64,000 bases of DNA from an uncultured virus (IMG/VR IMGVR_UViG_3300031787_000018) (lineage: Duplodnaviria > Heunggongvirae > Uroviricota > Caudoviricetes). The position numbers were made by a program, and so were the translations under genes. Shown here one piece after another: positions 5,874-47,354 of the stretch (positions within the stretch are counted from its first letter, which is position 1; each line of letters opens with the position of its first letter). Location of the stretch: the IMG/VR virus record IMGVR_UViG_3300031787_000018, positions 1 through 64,000 of that record. The stretch is one strand, 5' to 3'. The notes below the pieces were generated by a model. It saw nothing but the letters and a program-made list of their open reading frames with translations. It ran no database searches and had not been told where the DNA came from.

Positions 5874-5883
5874 TTTTTAAGAT

Positions 5884-5910
5884 AAAACCACCATGTTAGG
5901 TGGTTTTTTT
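5884..5910 (+). terminator. intrinsic terminator
   Basis: AAAACCACC-ATGTTA-GGTGGTTTT followed by T-run. Confidence 0.8.
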
Positions 5911-5975
5911 ATGCTCTTTTGATATTTATAGAAAAATGTATTTGTACAAATAACAATAAATTAAAAAATTAAAAA

Positions 5976-6137
5976 ATGGCTAAAAAAGTATTACGTTACA
6001 CAGAAGAACAGTTTATAACACTTCTTGAAAACATTGTAAAAAAAGTTAAAGCTGAAGAAACTTTAAACGAATCAGTAGATCCTAACAGAAATGCCAGAAG
6101 ACAAAATTTAAACGAAAGATTTAAAAAACTAAAATAA
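5976..6137 (+). CDS. small hypothetical protein (53 aa, not in ORF track)
   Basis: MAKKVLRYTEEQFITLLENIVKKV...; A-rich leader; ATATTTAT at 5922. Confidence 0.65.
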   Translation: MAKKVLRYTEEQFITLLENIVKKVKAEETLNESVDPNRNARRQNLNERFKKLK

Positions 6138-6141
6138 TCCA

Positions 6142-6426
6142 ATGAGTAATAATAATATAAAAAGGATTATTAAGGAGGAGTTAAACAAATCTGATGAGGC
6201 TAAAATTAAAAAAATAGCTAAGGATGAGTTTGACAAACTAATTGGTAAACATTTAAAAAGTGAAGATCTTGAAAAAAAGGTTAAAGAATTAGTTCTTAAA
6301 CATATCAAGAAAGATAAACCAACACAAAAAGAAGTGGCTAATATCACCAAAGAAGTGTTAGTTAAACTATACAAAACACTTTGGACTAGGAATAATTTTT
6401 GGAGTAACGGTTTAGAAAATATCTAA
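6142..6426 (+). CDS. hypothetical protein with N-terminal IKRIIKE motif
   Basis: ORF; motif shared with many genes in the window. Confidence 0.7.
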   Translation: MSNNNIKRIIKEELNKSDEAKIKKIAKDEFDKLIGKHLKSEDLEKKVKELVLKHIKKDKPTQKEVANITKEVLVKLYKTLWTRNNFWSNGLENI

Positions 6427-18201: not shown

Positions 18202-18244
18202 TTGACATTTAAATAAACTTTTGTATATTTGTATCATATTTATT
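18202..18244 (+). promoter_or_regulatory. promoter of tRNA cluster 1
   Basis: TTGACA 18202, TATATTTG 18224, then ATATTTAT; similar to the promoters at 28594 and 33336. Confidence 0.75.
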
Positions 18245-18274
18245 AAACACAAAAAATTATATAGTAAACTCACC

Positions 18275-18364
18275 ATGACAAAGGCGACAACATACATTGT
18301 TTTAACTCACAGAGAGGAGAGAGAACGTTATCTGACTAACAGTCGGAGTGGATGTCGTATATAG
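18275..18364 (+). CDS. attenuator leader peptide 1 (Glu/Arg sensor), MTKATTYIVLTHREERERYLTNSRSGCRI
   Basis: AGA GAG GAG AGA GAA CGT run, followed by a terminator and then tRNA-Glu and tRNA-Arg. Confidence 0.8.
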   Translation: MTKATTYIVLTHREERERYLTNSRSGCRI

Positions 18365-18388
18365 TCATGTCTCTATATATCAAGATAT

Positions 18389-18416
18389 AAACCCCGATTA
18401 AGAGTCGGGGTTTTTT
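18389..18416 (+). terminator. attenuator terminator 1
   Basis: AAACCCCGATT-AAG-AGTCGGGGTTT+T; competing AGTCGGAGT at 18341-18349. Confidence 0.85.
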
Positions 18417-19231: not shown

Positions 19232-20842
19232 ATGACAAAGTTCAAATCAAAAGCAGTGGAAAATTTTGACGGTGGTATTTCTTATACCTTAAACCCATTG
19301 GATACATTACGTATCGTGGCAGCATCATCTATCTTTGGTGAACCATCTTATTACAGAGGTTCTCACGACAAACCATCTAACTTATCTACGTTAAAGACGT
19401 ATGACGTGTTAGGTTTGTACAAAGACCCAAGTGATACAACTACTGATGTTTTCACTAAGGCTATCGACGAGGCTTTAGACTATGACTTCAAGGCAACCCT
19501 TGAGTTAGCTAAGACTCTTCGTCACGAACACTTCATGAGGTTAAACCCAGCGGTTATCTTCATTAGAGCGTCTCAACACCCAAAGAGGGTTGAATTTAAC
19601 GAAGCAAACCCAGGTTTGATGAAACAATACGGTTTGGACATTGTTGGTCGTCCTGATGACATCACCAACCAATTTGATTACTACATGTTCTTAAACGGTT
19701 CTAAGAATGGTTTACCATCTATCGTTAAGAGGACATGGGCTGAGAAGTTGGCGTCTTTCACCAAGTACCAAATCAAGAAATATAAGTCAAAGTCATTAAT
19801 TGACTTGGTTCGTATTTCTCACGCACACTCTGAAGTTATCGATGAGTTAATGAAGACTGGTGACGTGGCTGTTTCTGAAACTGAAACAACTTGGGAATCA
19901 CTTAGGTCTCAAGGTAAGACTTGGAAGGAAATTCTTAACACAATTAAGGTTTCACACATGGCTTTACTTAGGAACTTAAGGGGTATTTTCACTGAGGTGA
20001 ATGATACTGAAGTGGCTAAGAAGGTTTTAACTGACCTTAAGGCAGGTGTTAAGTTTGGTAAGCAATTCCCATTCCGTTACTACACAGCTTACAAGGAAAT
20101 CGATAAGGTTTCTATAAACCACAAGGGTATGATACTTGACGCTTTACAAGAGTGTCTTGACATCTCTATCGAAAACTTCCCTAAGTTAAAGGGTAAGGTG
20201 GCTTGTTTATCAGATAACTCTGGTTCAGCTTGGGGTACAATGACCTCTGAGTATGGTACAACCCATATTGCTGAAATTGCTAACTTATCATCTATCATCA
20301 CAGCTTTATGTTCTGATGAAGGATATGTCGGTGTCTTTGGTGAAAGATTGAGTTTAAAACCTGTTTCTAAAAGAGACGGTATTATTACTCAGTTGGAAGA
20401 AACTTGTAAGAGAGGTAAGTCTCAAGGACAATCTTGTGAACACGGTATTTGGTTATTCTTACGTGAAGCAATCGACACTAAAACTCACTATGATACTATC
20501 TTTATTTATAGTGACATGCAGGCAGGACACGGTGGTCTTTACGGTACAAGTGTAAGCCGTGGTGACGTTCACTCTAGAGGTGGAAGTTATGTAGACGTAC
20601 TTAAAATGGTACAAGAATACCGTAAGAAGGTTAACCCAAAGGTTAACGTATTCACAGTCCAAGTGGCTGGATACAACAACTCTGTTGTACCTGAAAACCT
20701 TTACAGGGGTTCAGTACTTGGGGGTTGGACTGGTAAGGAAGCCTTATACGCTAGTGAGGTAATCAAGACTTGGGATGAAATTGAGTCTAACGACAAGGTT
20801 ACATCTGAGGTTGAAGTTACTGAACAAGTAGTACAATCTTAA
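19232..20842 (+). CDS. rsr: Ro60/Rsr TROVE-domain RNA-binding protein with vWA domain
   Basis: FGEPSYY, MALLRNLRGI, QFPFRYYTAY, MIDAS DNSGSA, IYSDMQ. Confidence 0.92.
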   Translation: MTKFKSKAVENFDGGISYTLNPLDTLRIVAASSIFGEPSYYRGSHDKPSNLSTLKTYDVLGLYKDPSDTTTDVFTKAIDEALDYDFKATLELAKTLRHEHFMRLNPAVIFIRASQHPKRVEFNEANPGLMKQYGLDIVGRPDDITNQFDYYMFLNGSKNGLPSIVKRTWAEKLASFTKYQIKKYKSKSLIDLVRISHAHSEVIDELMKTGDVAVSETETTWESLRSQGKTWKEILNTIKVSHMALLRNLRGIFTEVNDTEVAKKVLTDLKAGVKFGKQFPFRYYTAYKEIDKVSINHKGMILDALQECLDISIENFPKLKGKVACLSDNSGSAWGTMTSEYGTTHIAEIANLSSIITALCSDEGYVGVFGERLSLKPVSKRDGIITQLEETCKRGKSQGQSCEHGIWLFLREAIDTKTHYDTIFIYSDMQAGHGGLYGTSVSRGDVHSRGGSYVDVLKMVQEYRKKVNPKVNVFTVQVAGYNNSVVPENLYRGSVLGGWTGKEALYASEVIKTWDEIESNDKVTSEVEVTEQVVQS

Positions 20843-26351: not shown

Positions 26352-27095
26352 ATGGAAAATAGTGAGGATATACGTAAGTTTATAAACAGAGAAATTAAGG
26401 CAAATTCAATTTTTATCATCAAACAAATAGATAAAAAAGTTGCTTATGAATTTGTTAGGGTTTACCATTATTTGGGTGATGCTAAGTTCTTTGCTAAGTT
26501 TTCCTTTGGTTTATACCATAAAGAAACCGATGAATTATTAGGGATTACCGCCTTCTCAAACCCACAAGGTAATGTGGCTTTAAAAGGTTGGTTCGGATTA
26601 CCTAATACAGACCAAACAGTATTAGAACTTAGTAGACTATGTGTTAAACCATACTTAAACGGAACCAACGCAACATCTTATTTATTGGGTAACAGTATAA
26701 AACTTCTTAAGAAAGAAGGGGTTAGAGCTGTTATAACATTAGCAGATGACAGTAGACACAATGGTAGTATATACCAAGTATGTAATTTCAAATACTACGG
26801 TCTAACAGATAAAAAATCAGACTTCTTTCATTTGAACGATAAAGGCGAATGGAAAGTCAATCCAAGAGGACCCACAAAAGATAAAAACGGTGTATGGATT
26901 AATAGAACACAAAAACACAGATATGCCTACATCATAGACGAAAACCTAAAATGTCTATACGAACAACTTTCATATCCTAAAAAAGACGATACAAAACAAT
27001 ATGATTGTTGTGCTGGTACTAAAATTGTAAAAGATAAACGCTTCAATATTGACTATCCGTGCCCCAAATGTACACTTTCTGTATTGGTCGAGTGA
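26352..27095 (+). CDS. Mom-like (GNAT-fold) DNA base-modification protein
   Basis: YHYLG, LELSRLC, SYLLGNSIK, ITLADDSRHNGSIYQVCNFKYYG. Confidence 0.7.
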   Translation: MENSEDIRKFINREIKANSIFIIKQIDKKVAYEFVRVYHYLGDAKFFAKFSFGLYHKETDELLGITAFSNPQGNVALKGWFGLPNTDQTVLELSRLCVKPYLNGTNATSYLLGNSIKLLKKEGVRAVITLADDSRHNGSIYQVCNFKYYGLTDKKSDFFHLNDKGEWKVNPRGPTKDKNGVWINRTQKHRYAYIIDENLKCLYEQLSYPKKDDTKQYDCCAGTKIVKDKRFNIDYPCPKCTLSVLVE

Positions 27096-27108: not shown

Positions 27109-27324
27109 ATGAATATCCATAAATTTATAAGAAGACATGATTTCATAAGTGGTAAACCATTTTATTCATTGTCAATGATTGAGGTTGTACCGAGAATTAT
27201 ATTTGATTTTGTACCAAACCGAATACCAACAAGATATTCAACAACAATGATTGATAGTAGGTATTATTCTACGATAACATATAATAACCCAATGCCAATG
27301 GTCAACGGTACGGTACTATTTTAA
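27109..27324 (+). CDS. small protein resembling the C-terminal segment of T4-like major capsid protein
   Basis: TRYSTTMIDSRYYSTI resembles gp23 TRYAKKMVNxRFYG. Confidence 0.45.
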   Translation: MNIHKFIRRHDFISGKPFYSLSMIEVVPRIIFDFVPNRIPTRYSTTMIDSRYYSTITYNNPMPMVNGTVLF

Positions 27325-27878
27325 TGATAACCAAATCTTTACCAATATTTTCTTTTATCAATCCATCATTTAAATGGAGTTGTGTTCAATCTCGTATTGT
27401 AGTTGGTGAAACTAGGGCTATAAGAGCTATATGGACACCAGAACTCGCTCAAGATTTACAGGCTTTCCACAATATAGATGCTGAAGCTGAATTAACAGCT
27501 TTATTGACGGAAAATCTTAGACAAGAAATTGATACACAAATATTAAACGATTTACGTGTACGTGGTTGGGATAATTTATTTGATGTTAACAGAGGTTTAA
27601 TTAATAACAGACCTGTAAATGATTTTGATAATATACAGTTACCTTTAATTAGACAAGTATCTGCAAGAACATTAGGTATGGATTTAGTAGGGGTACAATC
27701 ATTGGAACTACCTGATGGGTTAATGAATTACCTAGATTATAATTATAGAACTTTACCTAATGAGGAAGGTTGGTACACAAACGATACTTGGGAATCTATA
27801 TTCATTAATATGTATTTAAAACCACATAAATTTTTACCACCGAAACGTAGAAGTAGAAGGGATATAAGAAATTTTTAA
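27324..27878 (+). CDS. major capsid protein (gp23) fragment paralog with rearranged segment order
   Basis: RAIWTPELAQDLQAFHNIDAEAELTALLTENLRQEID, then LPLIRQVSARTLGMDLVGVQSLELPDG. Confidence 0.75.
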   Translation: MITKSLPIFSFINPSFKWSCVQSRIVVGETRAIRAIWTPELAQDLQAFHNIDAEAELTALLTENLRQEIDTQILNDLRVRGWDNLFDVNRGLINNRPVNDFDNIQLPLIRQVSARTLGMDLVGVQSLELPDGLMNYLDYNYRTLPNEEGWYTNDTWESIFINMYLKPHKFLPPKRRSRRDIRNF

Positions 27879-27914: not shown

Positions 27915-28586
27915 ATGAGAAACTTAATTAAAAAAATCATAAAAGAAGAAATAATTAATGAATTTAATTTAAAAGAAACATTTACAAGACCATTGAAAAA
28001 TATTTCTAAATTAGATGATTTCACCTACATTGGTTATGAAGACAATGTTAAGGCCATATATAATTTCAGATTAGAAACTGTGGATGATAATATACCGAAA
28101 AGGTATTTTGGGGATTTGATTGATTATTTTTATGAATTTTCATGGAAATTCGACATGGAAATGGATGTAGAATTAAAAAACGATTGGTCTTGGGTTAAAG
28201 CCACAACAACATCTATAAAAATAATAGATGATTTTATTAGAACAATAAACCCAAAACTTATAAAATTTAGTGGTAGAAGTGAAGGTACCAAATCTATGTA
28301 TAATAACGACATTTTTGTTGATAAATTAAGATCAATATTTGGTCAAACACATAATATTATATTAGATGATGACGATCCTGAAAATAGAAAAATCTACATA
28401 TCAAAAAGAGAATACAATATTTTAAGTGAAGATACCATCCGTAAAAACATGGATTGTATGACTTATGAAGAGGCTTATAGAATTGTGAAATTCCCTAAAA
28501 AAAACCAATTTAAAGGTATAGTAAGGAATAAATTTAAAAAAGAACAAATACAAAGAATATTAAACAAAGAAAAATATTTATTTTAA
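27915..28586 (+). CDS. hypothetical protein with IKKIIKE motif
   Basis: 223-aa ORF after ATATTTAT (27893). Confidence 0.7.
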   Translation: MRNLIKKIIKEEIINEFNLKETFTRPLKNISKLDDFTYIGYEDNVKAIYNFRLETVDDNIPKRYFGDLIDYFYEFSWKFDMEMDVELKNDWSWVKATTTSIKIIDDFIRTINPKLIKFSGRSEGTKSMYNNDIFVDKLRSIFGQTHNIILDDDDPENRKIYISKREYNILSEDTIRKNMDCMTYEEAYRIVKFPKKNQFKGIVRNKFKKEQIQRILNKEKYLF

Positions 28587-28593
28587 AAAAAAC

Positions 28594-28640
28594 TTGACAA
28601 GTAATAAACTTTTACTATCTTTGTATCATATTTATTAACA
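28594..28640 (+). promoter_or_regulatory. promoter of tRNA cluster 2 (47-nt block identical to 33336-33382)
   Basis: TTGACAAGTAATAAACTTTTACTATCTTTGTATCATATTTATTAACA. Confidence 0.8.
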
Positions 28641-28657
28641 GTAACAGAATTAAACAA

Positions 28658-28750
28658 ATGAAGACTTTAACAAACATATTATTCGTGATGACACTAACGG
28701 TGTTATTTCAGTTTACACAAACTGAACTCGGGTTCTTATGTCTAAGTTAA
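28658..28750 (+). CDS. attenuator leader peptide 2 (Gln/Phe/Met/Thr/Val/Leu sensor), MKTLTNILFVMTLTVLFQFTQTELGFLCLS
   Basis: 15 consecutive codons from the downstream tRNA set; antiterminator CTCGGGTTCTT 28727-28737. Confidence 0.85.
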   Translation: MKTLTNILFVMTLTVLFQFTQTELGFLCLS

Positions 28751-28778
28751 TCATTTAATATATTAACAAATTTAGAAG

Positions 28779-28806
28779 AACCCGAGAAAAACTCTCGGGT
28801 TTTTTT
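28779..28806 (+). terminator. attenuator terminator 2
   Basis: AACCCGAGA-AAAAC-TCTCGGGTT followed by T-run. Confidence 0.88.
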
Positions 28807-28815
28807 ATTTTATAT

Positions 28816-28889
28816 TATCCCGTCGCCTAATTGGCATGGCACTAGATTTTGACTCTAGCATAGTACAGGTTCGAACCCTGTCGGGATAA
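28816..28889 (+). tRNA. tRNA-Gln(TTG)
   Basis: TATCCCG/CGGGATA; CTAGA-TTTTGAC-TCTAG. Confidence 0.9.
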
Positions 28890-28919
28890 CCGAAGAAGTT
28901 ATTTGACATATTATATTTT

Positions 28920-28992
28920 GTGGAAGTTACCAAGTTGGTCAAGGTGTTGGTCTGAAAAACCAATTATATGAGTTCGATTCTCATCTTCCACA
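28920..28992 (+). tRNA. tRNA-Phe(GAA)
   Basis: GTGGAAG/CTTCCAC; TTGGT-CTGAAAA-ACCAA. Confidence 0.9.
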
Positions 28993-29108
28993 CAACAAGC
29001 CGTAGGTATGAATAAGTATATATATATATATATAATATTATTTTAATAACTTATTTAATCATTAATTAAAATAATCATCTAAAGTTCGATAATTTTTATC
29101 GATATATA

Positions 29109-29957
29109 ATGATATTTATTACTATGAAATGGTATAAAAAAGATATTGAAACATTGATTGAATTAATTCGTCAAGGTAACACCTATGATGAAATAGGTGT
29201 TATAATGAAAAGAAGTAGATCTTCTATTAAAGCTAAATTATTAAAATTGGGTGAGACATATAGAAAGTATTCTGAAAACAATTATTATGAAAAGGTTAAT
29301 TGTAAAAATTGTGGTATAGAATTTAAATCTTTAATGTCTAATAAACAAAAATTTTGTAACCATACATGTGCTGCAAGTTATAATAATGTAATTAGAGGTA
29401 AAAGAAGTCAAGAAACAAAAAATAAAATAAGTAAATCATTAAAAAGTAAAAAAAAGGAGAAATATGATTTAAATCCTAAAAAATGTATGAAATGTGGTGA
29501 ACATATACCATATAGTAAATGGTGTAATTATAGAAAAAATTGTGACGAATGTAACATTATTATTCGTAAAAATATGGGTAGGATTTTAGGTCAAAAAACC
29601 TCACAAACCAAAATAAAAAGATCGAAAGACGAGATAAATTTATATGAGTTATGTAAGATGAGTTTTAACGATGTTGAACATAATAAAATAATAAGTTCTG
29701 GATGGGATGCTGATATTGTTATAAATGATTATAAAATACTTATACTATGGAATGGTCCTTGGCATTATAAACAGTTACCATTAAAAAACCATAGTTTAAA
29801 TCAAGTACAAACTAGAGATAAAATAAAACAAAAATTGTTTGAAAGTTTAGGTTGGAGAGTTATAATATTTGAAGATAGATATTACACACCATATACAGCT
29901 TTTGATTATTTAAAAAATATAATTCGGGATATATCTCCCCACTCTCATAAGGTGTAG
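29109..29957 (+). CDS. putative free-standing homing endonuclease (Zn-ribbon plus Vsr/DUF559-like nuclease)
   Basis: CxxC pairs; DADIVI...ILWNGPWHY...RDKIK...GWRVIIFED; lies inside a tRNA cluster. Confidence 0.7.
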   Translation: MIFITMKWYKKDIETLIELIRQGNTYDEIGVIMKRSRSSIKAKLLKLGETYRKYSENNYYEKVNCKNCGIEFKSLMSNKQKFCNHTCAASYNNVIRGKRSQETKNKISKSLKSKKKEKYDLNPKKCMKCGEHIPYSKWCNYRKNCDECNIIIRKNMGRILGQKTSQTKIKRSKDEINLYELCKMSFNDVEHNKIISSGWDADIVINDYKILILWNGPWHYKQLPLKNHSLNQVQTRDKIKQKLFESLGWRVIIFEDRYYTPYTAFDYLKNIIRDISPHSHKV

Positions 29958-30002
29958 AAAGAGTAATTGGCAACATGTGAGTTCAACTCTCACTATCCCG
30001 AC
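29924..30002 (+). tRNA. atypical tRNA-Met(CAT)-like element lacking a normal D-arm
   Basis: TCGGGAT/ATCCCGA acceptor; CACT-CTCATAA-GGTG; GTGAG-TTCAACT-CTCAC T-arm. Confidence 0.45.
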
Positions 30003-30047
30003 AAAATAATGGTTCGATCTGTTCAAATCAGATATACGGTACTATAT

Positions 30048-30121
30048 TCCGGTGATACTCTGAAGGTAAGGGTGCTCGCCTTGTAAGCGAGATTTAGTCG
30101 GTTCGATCCCGACCACCGGAT
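30048..30121 (+). tRNA. tRNA-Thr(TGT)
   Basis: TCCGGTG/CACCGGA; CTCGC-CTTGTAA-GCGAG. Confidence 0.85.
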
Positions 30122-30126
30122 CAAAA

Positions 30127-30197
30127 GCCCTGATGACGTAATGGTAGCGTACTAATTTTACATGTTAGCAGCAAAGGTTCAATTCCTTTTCAGGGCA
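30127..30197 (+). tRNA. tRNA-Val(TAC)
   Basis: GCCCTGA/TCAGGGC; CTAAT-TTTACAT-GTTAG. Confidence 0.85.
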
Positions 30198-30203
30198 CAA
30201 AAA

Positions 30204-30280
30204 GCCTTCGTGACGTAATTGGTAACCGTGTTAGTTTTAGAAACTAAATTTTGTGAGTTCAAATCTCACCGAAGGCACCA
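30204..30280 (+). tRNA. tRNA-Leu(TAG), short variable loop
   Basis: GCCTTCG/CGAAGGC-ACCA; TTAGT-TTTAGAA-ACTAA. Confidence 0.88.
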
Positions 30281-30328
30281 AAAATTTTGATAATAAATAA
30301 ACTTTTACTATATTTGTATCAACAAAAT

Positions 30329-30402
30329 GTTCCCATGGCGAAATTGGTAAACGCAACGAGTTTAAGCCTCGTATGTTCTCGGTTCAAATCCGGGTGGGAA
30401 TA
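30329..30402 (+). tRNA. tRNA-Leu(TAA), short variable loop
   Basis: GTTCCCA/TGGGAAT; ACGAG-TTTAAGC-CTCGT. Confidence 0.88.
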
Positions 30403-30405
30403 CAA

Positions 30406-30897
30406 AACATTGACGATATGGCGTGTAGGTGTAACTCGTTATAACACCGAGGGGAACATATGGTATACGAGAAACCATTGTGGTGTGTCTGAAGGGTCAA
30501 TGTTGATATGGGGTGAGAATCTTAGTTGGCCACTAAGAAAATATGGAAGGGTGTCGCGTTACCCAATCGGCTCAAATCCGATCCACTCCACTTTGGGTTA
30601 TTTTTTGACCAAAAAATAATGAGTAAGAGATACTCAAGAGTTGGGCTACTGGTCTATATCGCGTGGCAGTCTAGATGAGTGATGAGACTTTAAACTTCAC
30701 CCCTTGGGTTAAAGGAGAAACATCGAACTCCTCCATTGTACGGTTGACAGGTTTTTATGTGGTAAGACACTAATGTAAACTCATAGAATTACCGATTAGA
30801 GACAAAGGGCTCTTCTGCAGGTGTTATGAGATGGTTCTCGAAACAGTCAGAGAAACCCGTTAAAATCTAATCCTCAAAGTAATCTCATTTGGGGTAA
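30406..30897 (+). ncRNA. unidentified structured RNA region, including a tRNA-like element at 30509-30590
   Basis: GC-richer and gene-free; helices AACATTGAC/GTCAATGTT, TGGGGTG/CACTCCA, T-arm-like ATCGG-CTCAAAT-CCGAT. Confidence 0.5.
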
Positions 30898-30901
30898 AAA
30901 T

Positions 30902-31001
30902 AGTCAGGTGGCGTAATTGGTAACCGCTATAGGGTTGAGGCGTGCTAACTACCTATATAAATTGTTTTTAAACAATGCAGGTTCGAGTCCTGTCCTGACT
31001 A
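30902..31001 (+). ncRNA. tRNA-like RNA, AGTCAGG family copy 1
   Basis: AGTCAGG/CCTGACT acceptor, D-arm, GCAGGTTCGAGTCCTGT T-arm; extended non-canonical anticodon arm. Confidence 0.75.
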
Positions 31002-31016
31002 CAAAAATAAAGACAT

Positions 31017-31121
31017 ATGGAATATATATTAGGATTTTTAATTGGTATAAGTATTTTTATTATTTTTCATAAACCTATTATTAGAGCTTTAGAAAAATTA
31101 ATCGACATTATCCAAGAATAG
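31017..31121 (+). CDS. small membrane peptide (34 aa)
   Basis: MEYILGFLIGISIFIIFHKPIIRALEKLIDIIQE. Confidence 0.5.
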   Translation: MEYILGFLIGISIFIIFHKPIIRALEKLIDIIQE

Positions 31122-31220
31122 TCAGGTGGTGAAATTGGTAGCCACAGCATATAAGACCATGGGCGTTGTGTTGAAACCTACTGGGGATTAGATTTACAGG
31201 TTCGAGTCCTGTCCTGACTA
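31120..31220 (+). ncRNA. tRNA-like RNA, AGTCAGG family copy 2
   Basis: same acceptor and near-identical T-arm as copy 1; different interior. Confidence 0.75.
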
Positions 31221-31223
31221 CAC

Positions 31224-31440
31224 GAGTCGAGTTGTGTTCGACTAATGTGCTCCCGCATGATGGAAGTGGTGTCACACCCACAGGGACCTGAGCCGATTAC
31301 TTGAATCTAAGTCGGTTGGTTGGTGTACCAGTAACAGGAGGAAGTTAACACACAAGTCCTAACCCCTCACGTAAGTGGGTTGCCGCTGAAGCCTCGAGAA
31401 GCTATTCGGTATTGGGGACAGTCAGAAATGATTGGGCGAA
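31224..31440 (+). ncRNA. unidentified structured RNA
   Basis: GC-rich non-coding stretch; hairpins AGTCGA/TCGACT, GCCGATT/AGTCGGT, CTCAC-GTAA-GTGGG, CAGTCA-GAAA-TGATTG. Confidence 0.45.
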
Positions 31441-31446
31441 AATTAT

Positions 31447-31521
31447 AGTCAGGTGGTAGAATTGTGATTACACCTTGGGACGAATGTCTAGGAGATACAG
31501 GTTCGAATCCTGTCCTGACTA
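31447..31521 (+). ncRNA. tRNA-like RNA, AGTCAGG family copy 3
   Basis: same acceptor and near-identical T-arm; anticodon arm closed by a 4-nt GAAT loop. Confidence 0.75.
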
Positions 31522-31554
31522 CAAGATATTTATAAAAGAGATAGGAGGGATTAC

Positions 31555-32037
31555 ATGGTACTAATACTTAACGCTGACTACACACCATTAACTGTGGCTA
31601 ACTTTAAAAGAGCCTACAGATTAGTGTATAAAGGTAAGGCAGAAATAGTGGTTTCTCATGGTAAAGTTGATGCTGGTATAATATTGGATAAGCCTTCCAT
31701 AATTAGATTAATTAAATATGTTTACTTTCCATATAAAAAAGTAACCTTATCAAGGTATAACATTTATAGAAGGGATGAACATAAGTGTTTATATTGTGGA
31801 TCCAAAGATAATTTAACGTTAGACCATGTTATACCAAGAAGTAAGGGTGGGCCAAACAGTTGGACAAACTTGGTGACATGTTGTATGAGATGTAATATGT
31901 TAAAGGGTGATAGAACACCTGATGAGGCAGGAATGGTATTATCACATAAACCATTTACACCTAATTATTTATATTTTATAAACAAAATGCATAAAATACA
32001 TGAAGAATGGAAACCTTATTTAATGGATGATAAATAA
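31555..32037 (+). CDS. HNH endonuclease (McrA-like)
   Basis: IYRRDEHKCLYCG...LTLDHVIPRSKGG..SWTNLVTCCMRCNMLKG. Confidence 0.92.
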   Translation: MVLILNADYTPLTVANFKRAYRLVYKGKAEIVVSHGKVDAGIILDKPSIIRLIKYVYFPYKKVTLSRYNIYRRDEHKCLYCGSKDNLTLDHVIPRSKGGPNSWTNLVTCCMRCNMLKGDRTPDEAGMVLSHKPFTPNYLYFINKMHKIHEEWKPYLMDDK

Positions 32038-32225
32038 TGGAAGGAAAAGAATTTAAATTTGTTGAGGGTATAGATTATTACCTAGATAAAGGTAGTATTG
32101 TACTTACTGAAGAATATTTAACACGTAGAAAAAAATGCTGTGGCTCTGGTTGCCGACATTGTCCATTTTGGCCTAGACATACTAAAGGTAATACAGAGTT
32201 AAGAGAAAAACCTAAAGAAAATTAA
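32037..32225 (+). CDS. small Cys-rich protein (DUF5522-like)
   Basis: VLTEEYLTRRKKCCGSGCRHCPF. Confidence 0.75.
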   Translation: MEGKEFKFVEGIDYYLDKGSIVLTEEYLTRRKKCCGSGCRHCPFWPRHTKGNTELREKPKEN

Positions 32226-32275
32226 AAAATACTTGACAGGAGATAAAAATTAATATATAATTGTATCATTAATAT

Positions 32276-32347
32276 CGCGATGAGGGTGTTGGTTCCCCAC
32301 CGGTCTCATAAACCAGGTCCACGGCCGTTCGATTCGGCCCGTCGCCA
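32276..32347 (+). tRNA. tRNA-Met(CAT), initiator-like
   Basis: C1 mismatch in CGCGATG/CGTCGCC; loop CTCATAA; own TTGACA promoter (32233) and terminator, no leader peptide. Confidence 0.75.
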
Positions 32348-32444
32348 CTAAGTCCCCTATAGTATTATAGGGGATTTTTTTTAACATTAAAGACAACTTG
32401 ACAAATTTAACAATCATAACGATATTTATATAAAAAGATATACC

Positions 32445-33023
32445 ATGAGAAATTTTAACGAAGACGATTTTAACAATGAATTTGGTGATGACTTTTTTGG
32501 TCGTTGGGAACGATTTAATGAACGTATGAAAAACGATAGAGATTTTAGACGTGAAATTAATAGATTCCAAAAAGATTTTGAAGAAATGATGCGTATGATG
32601 TCTAAAAATAAAAAAAATGGCATAAATTTATTTGGTTTAAATGATGATATGAGGTTTATACCTTTAAACGATTTTAGGACAAATAATTTTGATGGAATGG
32701 ATATTCCTGAAGATGAAATGGATATTGAAAAAGGTGAGGATGAAAATGGTGAATGGGAAAAAAGAAATTGGGCATCACCTGACGGTTCTGTTTCTTATAC
32801 TTCTTTCACACGTTCATCAGGTATTGAGGATTTTGGTGATAAAATATTTGATAGAGATAAAAACAGAAATATTTTTGACCCTGAAAAAGAAAAATATTTA
32901 AAGTTGGCTAAATTAAAAAAGGCTTTGGATTATTGTGTTGAACAAGAAAAGTATGAAAAAGCCGCTGAACTTAAAAAAGAAATTGATAAAATAACAGCTT
33001 CTTTAAAAAAGAAAGAGGAATAA
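32445..33023 (+). CDS. hypothetical protein with C-terminal UVR (UvrB/C) motif
   Basis: LKKALDYCVEQEKYEKAAELKKEI. Confidence 0.75.
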   Translation: MRNFNEDDFNNEFGDDFFGRWERFNERMKNDRDFRREINRFQKDFEEMMRMMSKNKKNGINLFGLNDDMRFIPLNDFRTNNFDGMDIPEDEMDIEKGEDENGEWEKRNWASPDGSVSYTSFTRSSGIEDFGDKIFDRDKNRNIFDPEKEKYLKLAKLKKALDYCVEQEKYEKAAELKKEIDKITASLKKKEE

Positions 33024-33092
33024 AAACTATAAGTAATATTTTTTTACTGTTTTTTCTTATAGTTAATTTTAAATAATCATACATGGACAGTA

Positions 33093-33323
33093 GTGATGAA
33101 CCGTATAAACAAAGAAAGACTCGCAACCATAAGCTTAATTTTGGCAATGTTCTTCAACCCTCTAGGGTTCGACGCACTATTCAACGCTGTAATGACATTG
33201 ACAGGTTCTTATTGGATTACGGATATAATATTTTACCTTATATCACTATCGTTTCTTGGGTTATATTTCTTATTACAAGGTATTAACCCAATAAAACACG
33301 TAAAAGAAAAAATAAAAAAATAA
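33093..33323 (+). CDS. small membrane protein
   Basis: two hydrophobic helices; FFNPLGFDALF. Confidence 0.6.
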   Translation: MMNRINKERLATISLILAMFFNPLGFDALFNAVMTLTGSYWITDIIFYLISLSFLGLYFLLQGINPIKHVKEKIKK

Positions 33324-33335
33324 TTTAAAAAATAG

Positions 33336-33382
33336 TTGACAAGTAATAAACTTTTACTATCTTTGTATCATATTTATTAACA
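33336..33382 (+). promoter_or_regulatory. promoter of tRNA cluster 3 (identical to 28594-28640)
   Basis: exact 47-nt repeat containing TTGACA, TATCTTTG and ATATTTAT. Confidence 0.8.
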
Positions 33383-33400
33383 AACAAAACAATTAAAGAA

Positions 33401-33496
33401 ATGAAAAATTGGCATAACATATCGAGTATACATAGTAATCGAATTAATAGTTCGGTGTACACATGGTGTGTTTTGTCCAATCAAGATAATACTTAA
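33401..33496 (+). CDS. attenuator leader peptide 3 (Ser/His/Asn/Ile/Trp/Arg sensor), MKNWHNISSIHSNRINSSVYTWCVLSNQDNT
   Basis: 16 consecutive codons from the downstream tRNA set; antiterminator TGGTGTGTTTT 33464-33474. Confidence 0.87.
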   Translation: MKNWHNISSIHSNRINSSVYTWCVLSNQDNT

Positions 33497-33521
33497 TGGG
33501 AATTAAGTTTTTTGTACAAGG

Positions 33522-33556
33522 AAAACCCACCACATGAAAATGTCGGTGGGTTTTTT
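33522..33556 (+). terminator. attenuator terminator 3
   Basis: AAAACCCACC-ACAT-GAAA-ATGT-C-GGTGGGTTTT+TT. Confidence 0.85.
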
Positions 33557-33584
33557 GTTATTTGACATATTGGTAAATTAAAAT

Positions 33585-33673
33585 GGAGAGTTAAGCAGAT
33601 GCATTGGAGCGTCGACCAGCTTTGAAACCTGGGTCTCGTTAAGTCGGGTGGGGGTCGGGTCCTCAGCTCTCCG
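33585..33673 (+). tRNA. tRNA-Ser(TGA)
   Basis: GGAGAGT/GCTCTCC-G; loop TTTGAAA; long variable arm; atypical T-loop. Confidence 0.75.
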
Positions 33674-33679
33674 CAAAAT

Positions 33680-33768
33680 GGTGTTAGAGTCGGATATTGG
33701 TTAGCCGAGCTTGTCTGTGAAACAAGTGTTCTTTAGTGAACGTGCGGGTTCAATCCCCGTCTATCACC
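33680..33768 (+). tRNA. tRNA-His(GTG) with long variable arm
   Basis: G-1:C73; CTTGT-CTGTGAA-ACAAG. Confidence 0.85.
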
Positions 33769-33775
33769 CAAATAC

Positions 33776-33850
33776 GGGTCTGTAGTACTAATTGGATAAA
33801 ACTTTCGGCTGTTAACCGAGATGATGTGAGTTCGAGTCTCACTGGACCCG
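33776..33850 (+). tRNA. tRNA-Asn(GTT) 1
   Basis: GGGTCTG/TGGACCC; TTCGG-CTGTTAA-CCGAG. Confidence 0.85.
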
Positions 33851-33857
33851 CTGATTT

Positions 33858-33933
33858 GGACTGTAAGCTGACAAGGGGTAGCTGTGGCCTGTTAAGCCAA
33901 GGGTGGTGGGTTCGATTCCCACACAGTCCGCCA
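33858..33933 (+). tRNA. tRNA-Asn(GTT) 2
   Basis: GGACTGT/ACAGTCC-GCCA; TGGC-CTGTTAA-GCCA. Confidence 0.85.
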
Positions 33934-33936
33934 AAC

Positions 33937-34008
33937 GGGGGTATAGCTCAGTGGTAGAGCAGAGAGCTGTTAACTCTAAGGTCGTAGGTTCAATCCCTTC
34001 TACCCCCG
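33937..34008 (+). tRNA. tRNA-Asn(GTT) 3
   Basis: GGGGGTA/TACCCCC; canonical D-arm; AGAG-CTGTTAA-CTCT. Confidence 0.9.
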
Positions 34009-34015
34009 CAAATAT

Positions 34016-34088
34016 AGTATCGTGTCTGAACGGTTTAGGAACTATCCTGATAAGATAGGAAAAGTGGGTTCAACTCCCACCGATACTA
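34016..34088 (+). tRNA. tRNA-Ile(GAT)
   Basis: AGTATCG/CGATACT; CTATC-CTGATAA-GATAG. Confidence 0.88.
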
Positions 34089-34095
34089 CTAAAAT

Positions 34096-34169
34096 ACATC
34101 TGAGACCATATAGGAATTGGTACTGGCTTCCAAACCCAGTTGTTGCAGGTTCGAATCCTGTCAGATGTG
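34096..34169 (+). tRNA. tRNA-Trp(CCA)
   Basis: ACATCTG/CAGATGT-G; anticodon loop TTCCAAA. Confidence 0.85.
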
Positions 34170-34174
34170 CAAAA

Positions 34175-34264
34175 GGAAGATAGGTAAATATTGGTTTGTT
34201 ACAGCATCCTGCTAAGATGTCCCGGGTAATACCGGTGAGGGTTCAATTCCCTTGTCTTCCGCCA
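34175..34264 (+). tRNA. tRNA-Ser(GCT)
   Basis: GGAAGAT/GTCTTCC-GCCA; GCATC-CTGCTAA-GATGT; long variable arm. Confidence 0.9.
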
Positions 34265-34267
34265 AAT

Positions 34268-34355
34268 GGAGAGTTAAGGAAGGGAGTGGTTCCCTCGCTT
34301 GTTTGGAAAACAAGAACCCATTAAGTTGGGCACAGTTCGACTCTGTATCTCTCCG
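34268..34355 (+). tRNA. tRNA-Ser(GGA)
   Basis: GGAGAG/CTCTCC-G; CTTGT-TTGGAAA-ACAAG; long variable arm. Confidence 0.85.
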
Positions 34356-34365
34356 CTAATAACAT

Positions 34366-34437
34366 GGGCGTGTCATATAAGGGTTATTATGCGAAGCTTA
34401 TACCTTCGTCAAGGTGGCTCAACTCCACCCACGCCTA
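34366..34437 (+). tRNA. tRNA-Ile(TAT)
   Basis: GGGCGTG/CACGCCT-A; CGAAG-CTTATAC-CTTCG. Confidence 0.8.
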
Positions 34438-34442
34438 CAAAT

Positions 34443-34517
34443 GGTTCCATAGTGTAATTGGATAACACGCAAAGCTACGAACTTTGAGACTTGAGGGTTC
34501 AAATCCTTCTGGAACTA
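34443..34517 (+). tRNA. tRNA-Arg(ACG)
   Basis: GGTTCCA/TGGAACT; CAAAG-CTACGAA-CTTTG. Confidence 0.9.
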
Positions 34518-34522
34518 CTAAC

Positions 34523-34548
34523 AAACCCACCCCATGGTGGGTTTTTTT
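34523..34548 (+). terminator. terminator ending tRNA cluster 3
   Basis: AAACCCACC-CCAT-GGTGGGTTT followed by T-run. Confidence 0.85.
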
Positions 34549-34584
34549 ATTTACATATGCCCCTAGTTTAAGTATAATTTATAT

Positions 34585-35103
34585 ATGATTAAAAATAGTA
34601 TTCCTGAACATAGAATGGGTGTACATGTTTCTGTACCGATAGAAGATATTAGACAGAACATGGATTTTGGTAATATAATCCAACCTAGATGGTTATTAAC
34701 AATACCACACAATCATGGTTTATATCAGTATTTAGTAAAAACAGATGGTCCATCAGTGGTAACAGTTGGTAATATTGATTTTGGTGTACCAAGATTGGAA
34801 TGGCAACCATTAAAATTAACCGTTGTAAGATGTGATGATTATGACACCACAAATACTATAACTTATACCAGTGGTACAATTACATTAGGTGATAGTCCTT
34901 TAGATGTAATCAGAAATTGGATGATGAGTTATGAAAAGAAAAATATTAGGTTGGAAAAAATAAACCATAATGGTTTATGGCATGAAAGGTTTGATATAAG
35001 AGGTTCATTTATAACAGAAATGAATCATGAGGTAATTATGGATAGGGAGATCAGTCAAATGGAGATAACAATAAATTTTGACCATTTACAGTATATATTA
35101 TGA
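34585..35103 (+). CDS. divergent T4 gp19-like tail tube paralog
   Basis: EWQPLKLTV...IRNWM...EKKNIRLEK...ERFDIRGSFITE...EITINFD pattern. Confidence 0.55.
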   Translation: MIKNSIPEHRMGVHVSVPIEDIRQNMDFGNIIQPRWLLTIPHNHGLYQYLVKTDGPSVVTVGNIDFGVPRLEWQPLKLTVVRCDDYDTTNTITYTSGTITLGDSPLDVIRNWMMSYEKKNIRLEKINHNGLWHERFDIRGSFITEMNHEVIMDREISQMEITINFDHLQYIL

Positions 35104-35570
35104 AAGAAAAAATTATGAGCAAGGTGTTGAAAAAGATAATAAAAGAATCGTTATTGTTAGAATCTATAGATATTTTTGATATAAATAACATACCTTGTGA
35201 GTTTAATATACATACTGAAAATAATAATAACATAACAGTAATATTCACACCAAATTCAGAAGACTTTTACCAATTAAGTATTGAAATAAAAGATGACGGT
35301 TGTTATTATGTTATATTCGGTGTTATTATTGATGATGTAGTTAGAACATCTTTGACTTTAAATAGTGATTACAGACTTAAAGTTTTATCTACTGTGTTCT
35401 CTTTAATTAAATACTATACAGATAAGTATAACGTTGAATGTTTGGAAATGGATATAGATGATGAAATGAGATTAAAATTATATAATCTTTATTTTAGTAA
35501 ACATTTTAAAAATTTCCAAGTAGATAAGTTAGGTAACAAAGTGAGATTAGTAAAAAATGATAAACTTTAA
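35100..35570 (+). CDS. hypothetical protein with LKKIIKE motif
   Basis: 156-aa ORF. Confidence 0.65.
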   Translation: MKEKIMSKVLKKIIKESLLLESIDIFDINNIPCEFNIHTENNNNITVIFTPNSEDFYQLSIEIKDDGCYYVIFGVIIDDVVRTSLTLNSDYRLKVLSTVFSLIKYYTDKYNVECLEMDIDDEMRLKLYNLYFSKHFKNFQVDKLGNKVRLVKNDKL

Positions 35571-35874
35571 TCAATATTTTAAAGAAATTGTTAGACCAAT
35601 AATTGGTGGGGATATGATAAAGGATGTTATATTGGTTAATAACGCTAAAATTAAAAATATAACAATAACGGAAGAAATTGAGTTACAAAAAAATAGTGTA
35701 GGTATTGATTTAATTGAGGATTGGACTTTTGATTTTATAGACCTTATTCAAAAAATAGAAAAAGATTATGGAATCACAATAAAAGATGATGAATATTGTT
35801 GTGATAATAACGGTTATTTCACTGTTAAAACTTTTGATGAATTAAATGATATTATAAAAAATAAAACATTATGA
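35557..35874 (+). CDS. acyl-carrier-protein-like protein lacking the DSL serine
   Basis: DFIDLIQKIEKDYGITIKDDE...VKTFDELNDII. Confidence 0.4.
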   Translation: MINFNQYFKEIVRPIIGGDMIKDVILVNNAKIKNITITEEIELQKNSVGIDLIEDWTFDFIDLIQKIEKDYGITIKDDEYCCDNNGYFTVKTFDELNDIIKNKTL

Positions 35875-36143
35875 AAGAAAAAATTATGAGCAAGGTTTTT
35901 ATAACCTTATTGGTTGTATGGGTGTTTTCGGCAGTTTATTTGTCGATTAATTCAATTTTTGGTATCTTTATGGATACAAATCCAAATATATCTAAAGCCA
36001 TATTAGGTTTTAGTTTTTTAGGTATGGTTGGTTCTGGTATCGTTAACAAATTTATTGGTAACGATTTAAATAAAATCGGTGAAGATTTAAAACAAAAAGG
36101 TTGTAAAACTTGTAAACAAAAGAATAAGAATGGGAATGTTTGA
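35871..36143 (+). CDS. small membrane protein
   Basis: two TM helices; C-terminal GCKTCK. Confidence 0.65.
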   Translation: MKEKIMSKVFITLLVVWVFSAVYLSINSIFGIFMDTNPNISKAILGFSFLGMVGSGIVNKFIGNDLNKIGEDLKQKGCKTCKQKNKNGNV

Positions 36144-36603
36144 TTATCTTAATGTTGACATCAATATTCTACCTGATTTAACAGAAGAAGAAAGGGTTAA
36201 ATTAGGTGGTAATAATATTGATTGGCAAACAAAACATTTTGAATGTGAAATGACCCATGTTTATATTGTTGAGGATACAGAAAATAAATTTAGACATTCA
36301 TTCTTAAAAAACAGAACACCTTATAAATTACAAATAAAAAGATTTGATTGGGAAGAGGTACCAAAAGAAGAAAGACCGTACCCAAATGCTGATGAAAATT
36401 CTTTTGAACACCTTCTAGGTTCTTTTAGGGAAATTAATGTAAGAGTTGAAGATTTAGATTATACAGGAACTTTTACTTTCTATACTTATATAAAACCAGA
36501 AGATGAGGGGATTGGTGATGTTAAAAAGTTAAAATGGGTTGAGTTTATTTGTGAAGTTGAAAATGGTAAAATAATTTCAATAAAGCGGTTGACAGATGAA
36601 TAA
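36130..36603 (+). CDS. hypothetical protein (MGMFD-start phage family)
   Basis: MGMFDYL...WQTK...YTGTFTFYT...WVEF. Confidence 0.65.
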   Translation: MGMFDYLNVDINILPDLTEEERVKLGGNNIDWQTKHFECEMTHVYIVEDTENKFRHSFLKNRTPYKLQIKRFDWEEVPKEERPYPNADENSFEHLLGSFREINVRVEDLDYTGTFTFYTYIKPEDEGIGDVKKLKWVEFICEVENGKIISIKRLTDE

Positions 36604-36822
36604 TAATCCTTATATTTGTATAAGAAATAAAAATACATAACATAAATTTAACATAAGCGTTGACAAATAAATAAAACTTTATTAATTTTGTCCATATTTA
36701 TTTATAGAAGTTGTGGTTCTGATGGGTTTCAGGAACCACCCCAAAAAAGACAGATACAGAACGGGGACTGTTTACAACGAAAACCCCACAAAAAAAACTA
36801 TAAACAAATTAAAACTAAAAAA

Positions 36823-36930
36823 ATGAGAAAGAATTACACATATCAACCGAGTACACCGAAAGCAGGGAAAGTAGCCGATAAAGGCTGTGATACCTTGAAT
36901 GGTTGTGGTATGTACAATTCTGTCTCATAA
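36823..36930 (+). CDS. attenuator leader peptide 4 (Tyr/Pro/Asp/Gly/Ala/Cys/Lys sensor), MRKNYTYQPSTPKAGKVADKGCDTLNGCGMYNSVS
   Basis: 11 of codons 12-23, plus Y5, Y7 and P9, match downstream tRNAs; antiterminator GGTTGTGG 36901-36908. Confidence 0.85.
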   Translation: MRKNYTYQPSTPKAGKVADKGCDTLNGCGMYNSVS

Positions 36931-36954
36931 GAATATATAGAGAAGAGTTTAAAT

Positions 36955-36991
36955 AACCCCCACAACCGATAAAAAAGTTGTGGGGGTTTTT
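36955..36991 (+). terminator. attenuator terminator 4
   Basis: AACCCCCACAAC-CGATAAAAAA-GTTGTGGGGGTT+TTT. Confidence 0.88.
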
Positions 36992-37005
36992 GTTTATAGT
37001 TATAC

Positions 37006-37087
37006 CCGTAAGTTGAACAGGTGGTGAGTTCCGTTGACTGTAGATCAACCGTTTTAAACTGTGGGGGTTCGATTCCCTCCTTACGGA
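37006..37087 (+). tRNA. tRNA-Tyr(GTA), C1:G72
   Basis: CCGTAAG/CTTACGG-A; GTTGA-CTGTAGA-TCAAC. Confidence 0.88.
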
Positions 37088-37107
37088 CAAAAACGTTCAT
37101 TGAAAAT

Positions 37108-46930: not shown

Positions 46931-47321
46931 GGGGGTGACTTGGAATTGATTGGCTACATTAGTTATTGTAAAAGCATGTCGAGACTTGTTTGTAGGCTCG
47001 TTAAACCAACAATCAAAATTTTAAATGGCGACATTTTCGCAGACGCTACTGTAGGTCACTTTGTGACTGAAGGTGCAGAGGTTGTAGCCTAATTAGATTA
47101 GGGTACACAACGGGGTTGGATTACCTAGGAACAGAAGTCCAAAAAAGGGTGTTACCACTACCACAAAAGGGTAAAGTCAAACATGGAATGTGTCAACTAA
47201 GTCCATGGGAGAACTAAAAGATGAAGTTGTATATTTTGGGTGGTTAGAAAACCACATCCTAAACATGTAGAAGACTTTAATTCATTAGAACAAGACGGCG
47301 GTTCGACCCCGCTCACCTCCA
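46931..47321 (+). ncRNA. ssrA: tmRNA
   Basis: GGGGGTG/CACCTCC-A acceptor with G3:U; GCGGTTCGACCCCGC T-arm; tag ORF 47027-47092 after TTAAAT. Confidence 0.93.
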
Positions 47322-47354
47322 CTTTAGAAATTTATTAACCTAAAAATCGAAAAA

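Follow-up and report, generated by a model that had tools for sequence, protein, structure and literature searches.

The DNA analysed in the present study, hereafter the window, comprises positions 1 to 64,000 of an IMG/VR virus record of 132 kb (IMGVR_UViG_3300031787_000018) assigned to the Caudoviricetes. One of the four large tRNA arrays encoded in the window, array 2, is preceded by an element referred to here as attenuator 2. This element is probably a ribosome-mediated leader-peptide transcription attenuator, which gates the phage tRNA array downstream of it and senses decoding capacity. The parts of the element, their order, the frame-specific match between the leader and the array, and the alternative pairings with covariation can all be read from the sequences compared. 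A promoter-proximal open reading frame (ORF) enriched in cognate codons and an intrinsic terminator in front of the tRNA genes were found. An antiterminator was predicted as well; it shares one strand with the terminator, and its other strand could be masked by a ribosome finishing the ORF. The attenuator interpretation had been put forward in an earlier note on this DNA. It is supported by the same layout in four of four large arrays, the frame-specific match in 20 leader families, the position of the complementary arm in all 20 of them and compensatory changes in the pairing of segments A and B of attenuator 2.

The G+C content of the window is 30%. In the stretches compared, the leader regions of a 318-kb record rated 96% complete are letter-for-letter the same as those of the window, and the source is therefore a jumbo phage. 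The sequencing runs containing the leader-2 stretch are mostly labelled as freshwater metagenomes. A blastn search of the cultured phage collection with the leader region returned only two short matches at the tRNA level, and a tblastn search of the same collection with an 871-aa protein of the window returned no match. ARAGORN with default settings predicts 22 tRNA genes in the window, and a few more are obtained with Rfam or with lowered thresholds.

Architecture of attenuator 2

The following features make up attenuator 2 and the tRNA genes behind it.

28594-28623 (+), promoter of attenuator 2, TTG-N19-TAnnTTTG type, TTGACAAGTAATAAACTTTTACTATCTTTG
28658-28750 (+), leader ORF 2, 30 codons, starting at the first ATG after the promoter, MKTLTNILFVMTLTVLFQFTQTELGFLCLS
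28679-28723 (+), sensor run, codons 8-22 of leader 2, LFVMTLTVLFQFTQT, only L, F, V, M, T and Q
28727-28737 (+), segment A, antiterminator 5' arm, CTCGGGTTCTT, within leader codons 24-27
28746-28767 (+), inner antiterminator hairpin GTTAAT/ATTAAC, the 5' arm including the stop codon 28748-28750
28776-28786 (+), segment B, antiterminator 3' arm, AAGAACCCGAG, overlapping the terminator 5' arm
28779-28811 (+), intrinsic terminator, stem 28779-28787/28793-28801, loop AAAAC, U-run from 28800
28816-28891 (+), tRNA-Gln(UUG), array 2
28920-28993 (+), tRNA-Phe(GAA), array 2
29925-30001 (+), atypical tRNA-like gene with a CAU anticodon loop, 28.5 bits against the Rfam cut-off of 29
30048-30122 (+), tRNA-Thr(UGU), array 2
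30127-30198 (+), tRNA-Val(UAC), array 2
30204-30280 (+), tRNA-Leu(UAG), array 2
30329-30403 (+), tRNA-Leu(UAA), array 2

The TTG-N19-TAnnTTTG motif, which we take to be the Bacteroidota housekeeping (sigma-A) promoter consensus, occurs 11 times in the window against 2.6 matches expected. Near-identical copies of the promoter precede tRNA arrays at 18202, 28594, 30287 and 33336, the copy at 33336 being identical to that at 28594, and a related copy with a different spacing is located at 36660. The transcript of attenuator 2 would start at about 28630-28640, a few bases past the promoter. The first ATG lies 35 nt past the promoter motif, and the stretch upstream of the leader ORF is A-rich and contains no Shine-Dalgarno sequence. 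Eleven distinct homologues, including three new ones from a metagenome scan, form the alignment of leader 2, and the frame is open in all of them.

The sensor run (TTA TTC GTG ATG ACA CTA ACG GTG TTA TTT CAG TTT ACA CAA ACT) encodes only six amino acids, as the earlier note had described and as was confirmed at its position. This 15-residue run of {L,F,V,M,T,Q} is the longest in the six frames of the 64-kb window, the next longest having 14 and 10 residues. The downstream tRNA genes follow in the order Gln(UUG), Phe(GAA), Thr(UGU), Val(UAC), Leu(UAG), Leu(UAA), and 21 of the 29 residues of the leader fall within the set of array 2, compared to a background of 0.267 (binomial P 3.7e-7). With strict wobble rules, 13 of the 15 sensor codons are readable by the called tRNAs of array 2. 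The ATG relies on the atypical CAU tRNA-like gene, and the ACT requires extended wobble of U34. Earlier, the Leu codons TTA and CTA had been described as cognate to the UAA and UAG anticodons of the two Leu tRNAs. They are indeed Watson-Crick matches here, but across the leader families the agreement of Leu and Arg codons with the anticodons of the arrays does not exceed the codon-usage expectation. The tRNA-Gln gene starts about 5 nt past the U-run of the terminator, which therefore leaves no room for a promoter of its own.

Terminator and antiterminator

Segments A and B are exact 11-nt reverse complements, and B overlaps the 5' arm of the terminator, the stem of which begins at 28779; on both points the earlier description was accurate. 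The window contains only three perfect 11-nt inverted repeats with a loop of at most 60 nt and at least 5 G/C, and two of them belong to attenuators. The terminator has a predicted energy of about -20 kcal/mol. In the alignment of 11 homologues, 96.9% of its cells are paired and three pairs are changed on both sides, and 95.5% of the cells of the inner hairpin (helix 2) are paired. For the antiterminator this value is 88%, compared to 31-51% in slid controls. Four antiterminator pairs change on both sides, a number equalled by 8 of 500 shuffles. Compensatory double changes from G-C to A-U were found at the core pairs 74-125 and 75-124 of the antiterminator. One of them is synonymous in the leader (GGG to GGA) and is mirrored in both arms of the terminator, and the other replaces Gly with Glu in the leader peptide, with the pairing kept.

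The alternative structures were also predicted with truncated folds, where each leader was folded up to the terminator loop, mimicking co-transcription, with the ribosome placed at set positions. When the ribosome is in the middle of the run, the terminator 5' arm is predicted to pair with a segment in the 3' part of the ORF, at -17 to -22 kcal/mol, in each of the four leaders of the window. Once the ribosome has reached the stop codon, this arm is predicted to be free, again in all four. In folds lacking a ribosome, the A-type segment is predicted to be held in an upstream pairing in leaders 1, 3 and 4 but not in leader 2.

Sister attenuators in the window

The succession of promoter, first-ATG ORF of 29-35 codons, terminator and tRNA genes recurs in all four large arrays of the window, which divide the amino acids among them. 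The other three attenuators are as follows.

18202-18416 (+), attenuator 1: promoter, leader ORF 18275-18364 (containing REERER) and terminator, before tRNA-Glu(UUC) and tRNA-Arg(UCU)
33336-33556 (+), attenuator 3: promoter, leader ORF 33401-33496 with the 16-codon run NWHNISSIHSNRINSS, and terminator
36660-36991 (+), attenuator 4: promoter, long 5' region with a conserved hairpin, leader ORF 36823-36930 and terminator

Array 3 encodes tRNAs for His, Asn (three genes), Ile(GAU), Trp, Ser(GCU), Ser(GGA), Ile(UAU) and Arg(ACG), together with a diverged Ser(UGA) called at the lowered threshold only. The residues Y, P, K, A, G, D and C are abundant in leader 4, and array 4 contains Tyr, Pro, Asp, Gly, Ala, Cys and Lys. 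When the four leaders were tabulated against the four arrays, every leader was most enriched for its own array (2.63-, 2.71-, 2.31- and 1.61-fold for leaders 1-4, with binomial P values of 0.008, 3.7e-7, 2e-5 and 0.0095).

The sister leaders bear on the nature of leader 2. Leader 2 encodes a hydrophobic peptide that is highly conserved, the 11 DNA variants giving 7 distinct peptides with few changes, and one contig has kept this leader intact with an insertion element in place of the array. Both observations would suit a small hydrophobic membrane peptide, encoded independently and followed by its own terminator, the likeness to the array being coincidental. We regard this explanation as hardly credible. 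The sister leaders are polar (REERER in leader 1, NWHNISSIHSNRINSS in leader 3 and KNYTYQPSTPKAGK in leader 4), and each of them matches its own array; the match extends to 20 families and is frame-specific; the terminator arm compensates for the Gly-to-Glu change of the peptide; and tRNA-Gln has no promoter of its own. The suggestion, raised in the earlier note, of a stable membrane peptide conserved regardless of the array content thus finds no support as a general reading, since the sister leaders are polar and track their own arrays.

In attenuator 4, an additional 5' region of about 130 nt (36695-36822, plus strand) contains a strong hairpin, GTGGTTCTG...CAGGAACCAC, which is conserved in relatives. 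An upstream ORF within this region was considered and rejected; unlike the hairpin, it is not conserved in the related contig G001.

Leader families in related phages

Two scans of the viral collection with promoter patterns yielded 10 and 61 loci. Among the 61 loci, 50 had a first-ATG ORF of 23-36 aa followed by tRNAs, two had a leader and no tRNA in the stretch available, and nine had neither. In addition, a composition-blind pipeline (promoter motif, first-ATG ORF of 15-45 aa, hairpin plus U-run) was applied to the tRNA regions of 31 records. It gave 53 units, 46 of them with a tRNA within 350 nt and 49 assignable to an array. At 50% identity, the 49 units formed 20 leader families, whose arrays are clearly grouped in different ways. 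Three of these families may serve as examples.

Leader family MKLVNKQIVKHVIQFCQNWYIRLF...: array Phe, Ile, Gln, Lys, Val, Tyr, Cys, His, Arg, Trp, Leu, Asn
Leader family MITNNIHISNRNQWYQPCF...: array Ile, Asn, Tyr, Trp, Phe, Pro, Gln, His, Ser, Ile, Arg, Cys
Leader family MKTNNNIFEFFIAEADF...: array Phe, Glu (three genes), Asp (two genes), Ala

The statistics were computed with one representative per family. The mean Z of leaders against their own arrays was 2.96, compared to 0.04 +/- 0.37 after permutation, and it was reached by none of 100,000 permutations. On average, the leaders include 94% of the amino acids having a tRNA in their own array. The own array was the top-scoring one in 13 of the 20 rows, several families sharing similar arrays. 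The match depends on the reading frame: residues belonging to the array set make up 55% in the ORF frame and 29-35% in the other five frames, and the ORF frame is the best one in 17 of the 20 families. Substitutions between homologous leaders stay within the array set in 33 of 41 cases in the sensor part and in 19 of 46 in the last 11 columns, that is, the 3' part (Fisher P 2e-4); the set of one family was inflated to all 20 amino acids by the array-boundary rule, which weakens this contrast and does not create it. As judged from these comparisons, the match between leader and array is robust at the amino-acid level.

At the codon level, the array anticodons can decode 79 of 135 informative codons under strict wobble, compared to 62.8 expected (Z 3.1), and the signal comes from Ser, Thr and Gly. 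A match that is robust for amino acids and modest for isoacceptors could also be produced by the same attenuator hardware sensing amino-acid supply, i.e., tRNA charging, in a starving host, the arrays being part of a starvation response. A stalled ribosome cannot distinguish a missing tRNA from an uncharged one, which likewise counts for this explanation. We consider it improbable: extra tRNA gives no relief from amino-acid starvation, so that the listing of 94% of the array amino acids would have no obvious purpose, and the Ser, Thr and Gly codons do track the anticodons of the arrays.

The complementarity to the terminator was found throughout the families. The stretch that best complements the terminator 5' arm is situated 0-45 nt ahead of the stop codon in all 20 families, and in 13 of the 20 it beats dinucleotide shuffles at P<=0.05 (mean z -2.7). 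The paired sequences vary by family, e.g., GTTCGGG, GACTGGG, GTTGTGG and GTCGGA, and at the level of families this variation amounts to covariation.

Proposed mechanism

Transcription would begin at the 28594-28623 promoter, and a ribosome would translate the 30-codon leader. If decoding is fast, the ribosome would reach the stop codon at 28748-28750 and cover or unwind segment A (28727-28737). With A masked, segment B (28776-28786) would pair with 28793-28801, the terminator would form, and the transcript would end at the U-run before tRNA-Gln. If, on the other hand, the ribosome stalls in the first dozen or so of the sensor codons (Leu, Phe, Val, Met, Thr, Gln), A would remain free and would pair with the emerging B. 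This pairing would block the terminator, and the polymerase would enter the genes for the Gln, Phe, (Met-like), Thr, Val and Leu tRNAs. The tRNAs produced would relieve the stall, and the unit would therefore regulate decoding capacity by negative feedback. Each of the three sister units would act likewise on one of the remaining three arrays. We infer from the arrangement of the parts that the leader is translated, that the ribosome and the polymerase are coupled, that the switch works in this direction and that charged tRNA is the limiting quantity sensed.

As a tentative extension, the leaders may be multiplexed sensors of failing host decoding capacity, each switching on the block that repairs its deficit. 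Host tRNAs might be cleaved by anticodon nucleases, become diluted once the host is shut off or fall short of the codon demand of late genes, and the array would be switched off again upon recovery of decoding.

Expression data and evidence weighing against attenuation

Several observations weigh against the attenuator interpretation or narrow it. The first group concerns the link between leaders and arrays. Intact leaders with no matching array do occur. The 7.7-kb contig G003 carries an intact leader and terminator, followed by transposase and TnpB-like ORFs that replace array 2; in G008 and G009, the only tRNAs behind an 11-amino-acid leader are those for Arg and Cys. The insertion in G003, which we take to consist of an IS200/IS605-like transposase and a TnpB-like protein, has the following composition.

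G003 (locus L021), 5787-7515, insertion pair: 136-aa ORF on the minus strand and 400-aa TnpB-like ORF

Conversely, arrays lacking leaders are represented by tRNA-Leu(UAA) behind the promoter at 30287, the second array of G013 and the Leu-Glu-Arg array of G006. The isoacceptor match is modest, and it is absent for Leu (8/20 against 8.6 expected) and Arg (12/22 against 13.0). The 20 families also come from related phages with a common promoter type and do not represent 20 independent inventions.

The second group of observations concerns the pairing. In seven of the 20 families, the complementarity of A and B is no better than in shuffles. Of the 11-nt pairing proposed in the earlier note for attenuator 2, the core of 6-7 bp, CTCGGGT/ACCCGAG, is conserved among the 11 homologues, while the outer 4 bp are often unpaired. 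Conservation is thus limited to 6-7 of the 11 bp, pairs 77-80/119-122 being each unpaired in 1 to 6 of the 11 sequences. Full-length minimum-energy folds give the terminator in every state, and the antiterminator appears in truncated folds only. Besides, the geometry suggests that a ribosome stalled on the last three or four sensor codons would cover A.

The leader-2 stretch was found in six RNA-library runs. In four of the four runs compared, contigs bridge terminator 2 into tRNA-Gln, which is compatible with read-through; these contigs may include DNA, and transcript ends and levels are not readable from contigs. The breaks of the RNA-library contigs at 28582-28640 coincide with the repeated promoter sequence, and depth is available as one figure per contig.

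The bridging contigs, being compatible with frequent read-through, would also suit another explanation. In this view, the ORF is translated and matched to the array, with control exerted post-transcriptionally (for example, stalled ribosomes might shield the precursor from nucleases, expose it to them or expose it to decay linked to transfer-messenger RNA, tmRNA), and the hairpin with its U-run is a constitutive leaky terminator or an element of processing or stability. The presence of a tmRNA gene in the phage fits this view as well. The explanation seems quite unlikely to us. The complement of the terminator arm, found in the 3' part of the ORF in 20 of 20 families and covarying, is a signature of an antiterminator that a stability model does not need, and the contigs cannot show that the bridging molecules are RNA.

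Comparison with known attenuation systems

The closest known counterparts of the phage element are the multivalent leader-peptide attenuators of the thr, ilvGMEDA and ilvBN operons of enterobacteria and the pheST attenuator described below; attenuators similar to the former control trp, his, leu and pheA. Like attenuators of the thr/ilv type, the phage element has a promoter-proximal short ORF enriched in codons of the controlled amino acids, mutually exclusive antiterminator and terminator structures, the 5' arm of the antiterminator at the end of the ORF and the terminator before the regulated genes. The predicted upstream pairing, which sequesters A when no ribosome is present in three of the four window leaders, resembles the trp 1:2 pairing. 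In contrast to the thr/ilv type, the regulated genes here are tRNAs and not biosynthetic enzymes, and the leaders list from 2 to 12 or more different amino acids, often once or a few times each, instead of runs of one to three amino acids. The phage units also differ in being phage-borne, in having promoters of Bacteroidota type and in lacking a Shine-Dalgarno sequence.

The pheST attenuator of E. coli controls phenylalanyl-tRNA synthetase. As in pheST, the phage leader peptide would sense the decoding of particular codons and control a translation component for the same amino acid; unlike the chromosomal pheST system, with its single amino acid and its synthetase, the phage units cover many amino acids, and their tRNA output would directly relieve the stall. 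The T-box riboswitch (RF00230) likewise senses tRNA status by means of a terminator/antiterminator switch upstream of translation-related genes. However, the T-box binds uncharged tRNA directly and needs no ORF, whereas a conserved in-frame ORF and a frame-specific match are found here. No match to RF00230 was obtained in the window, including 28500-37100. Rfam leader families (Leu_leader, His_leader, Thr_leader, Trp_leader and others) gave no hit at the gathering score in the window and none at E<=0.05 in 28500-37100. An assignment of a homologue to Leu_leader was rejected, as it scored 23-25 bits, below the cut-off of 50.

The purpose of phage tRNAs has been debated for decades, codon compensation and escape from tRNA-targeting defences being the opposing views. 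Phage tRNAs have been described as a counter-measure to host defences that target tRNAs (eLife 2023, PMC10264068). The available part of that paper gives a reason for carrying phage tRNAs when host tRNAs fail; it concerns tRNA sequences and contains no upstream regulatory element (PMC10264068). A full-text literature search, covering papers other than subscription-only ones, found no description of tRNA genes, or of tRNA arrays in phages, being controlled by leader peptides or attenuation.

If the proposed mechanism is correct, each array would have its own sensor of decoding speed and the tRNAs would be deployed on demand, and the question would become which stress opens which attenuator. Leader-peptide attenuation would extend beyond biosynthesis and synthetase genes to tRNAs, with leaders covering up to a dozen amino acids, and transcription and translation would be coupled in hosts with Bacteroidota-type expression signals. 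If the leaders do respond to failing host decoding, the arrays would serve as a counter-defence that can be induced and would provide the first example of tRNA genes whose expression is feedback-controlled by decoding speed. The composition of a leader predicts the content of its tRNA array and is a possible signature for annotation. Such a leader could also be used as a compact and tunable sensor of decoding capacity.

Promoters and unusual genes of array 2

Apart from the leader promoter, array 2 contains the following features.

29109-29957 (+), 282-aa ORF inside array 2, sub-threshold RAP-domain match only
30287-30316 (+), internal promoter with no leader, directly upstream of tRNA-Leu(UAA), exact TTG-N19-TAnnTTTG match

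A promoter-like element at about 30287-30316 had been suggested earlier to drive tRNA-Leu(UAA) independently. In the phage of the window, the match to the motif is exact and the element shares 89% identity with the leader promoter across 35 nt, so this part of the suggestion holds, but the element is missing in relatives. No internal promoter was found between the two Leu genes of G002, G028, G029 and G026; in relatives, these genes are separated by a conserved structured spacer or by almost none. It is probable that in the phage of the window tRNA-Leu(UAA) can be made independently of attenuator 2.

An exact 14-nt repeat, TTATTTGACATATT, is present at 28899-28912 and 33558-33571 (plus strand), 12-22 nt upstream of tRNA 5' ends, and similar motifs precede tRNAs in relatives too. 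The repeat was examined as a bypass promoter for tRNA-Phe and a Ser-like tRNA and was rejected: there are two exact copies only, the count is at chance level when up to two mismatches are allowed, and a distance of 12-22 nt from the tRNA 5' ends is too close for the local promoter type. The repeat may be a processing signal.

The 282-aa ORF is possibly a mobile endonuclease-like insert. Pfam gives no support for an HNH endonuclease, which was therefore dropped as a candidate. The CAU tRNA-like gene at 29925-30001 was not called by ARAGORN; it occupies the position of tRNA-Met in the relatives G017, G026 and G028.

Downstream of array 2, at 30404-30600 (plus strand), a conserved RNA-like element of about 90 nt (ATATGGGGTGAGA...CCACTCCAC) is followed by a U-rich tract. 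The same element is located between the two Leu tRNA genes of G002, G028 and G029, and no Rfam family matches it. Three paralogous tRNA-like genes follow at 30902-31001, 31120-31220 and 31447-31521 (plus strand). They have common acceptor and T arms (AGTCAGG...CCTGACTA) and inserted or irregular anticodon regions, for which ARAGORN gives introns or loops of other than 7 nt. Relatives carry similar tRNAs, labelled '???', and one relative has a CUA (amber-reading) tRNA. In the stretch compared, the RNA-library contigs are deepest over 30400-31600.

Neighbouring genes

The phage encodes a tmRNA at 46931-47324 (plus strand; 82 bits, full-length model), worthy of note beside a system that would depend on ribosome stalling. 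Just downstream of array 1, a 536-aa ORF (19232-20842, plus strand) contains a TROVE (Ro60-like) domain. Ro-type proteins bind misfolded or tRNA-like small RNAs. A protein of the Mom family (PF25680) is encoded at 26352-27095 (plus strand), and a 184-aa ORF at 27324-27878 (plus strand) matches part of the T4 Gp23 major capsid profile only.

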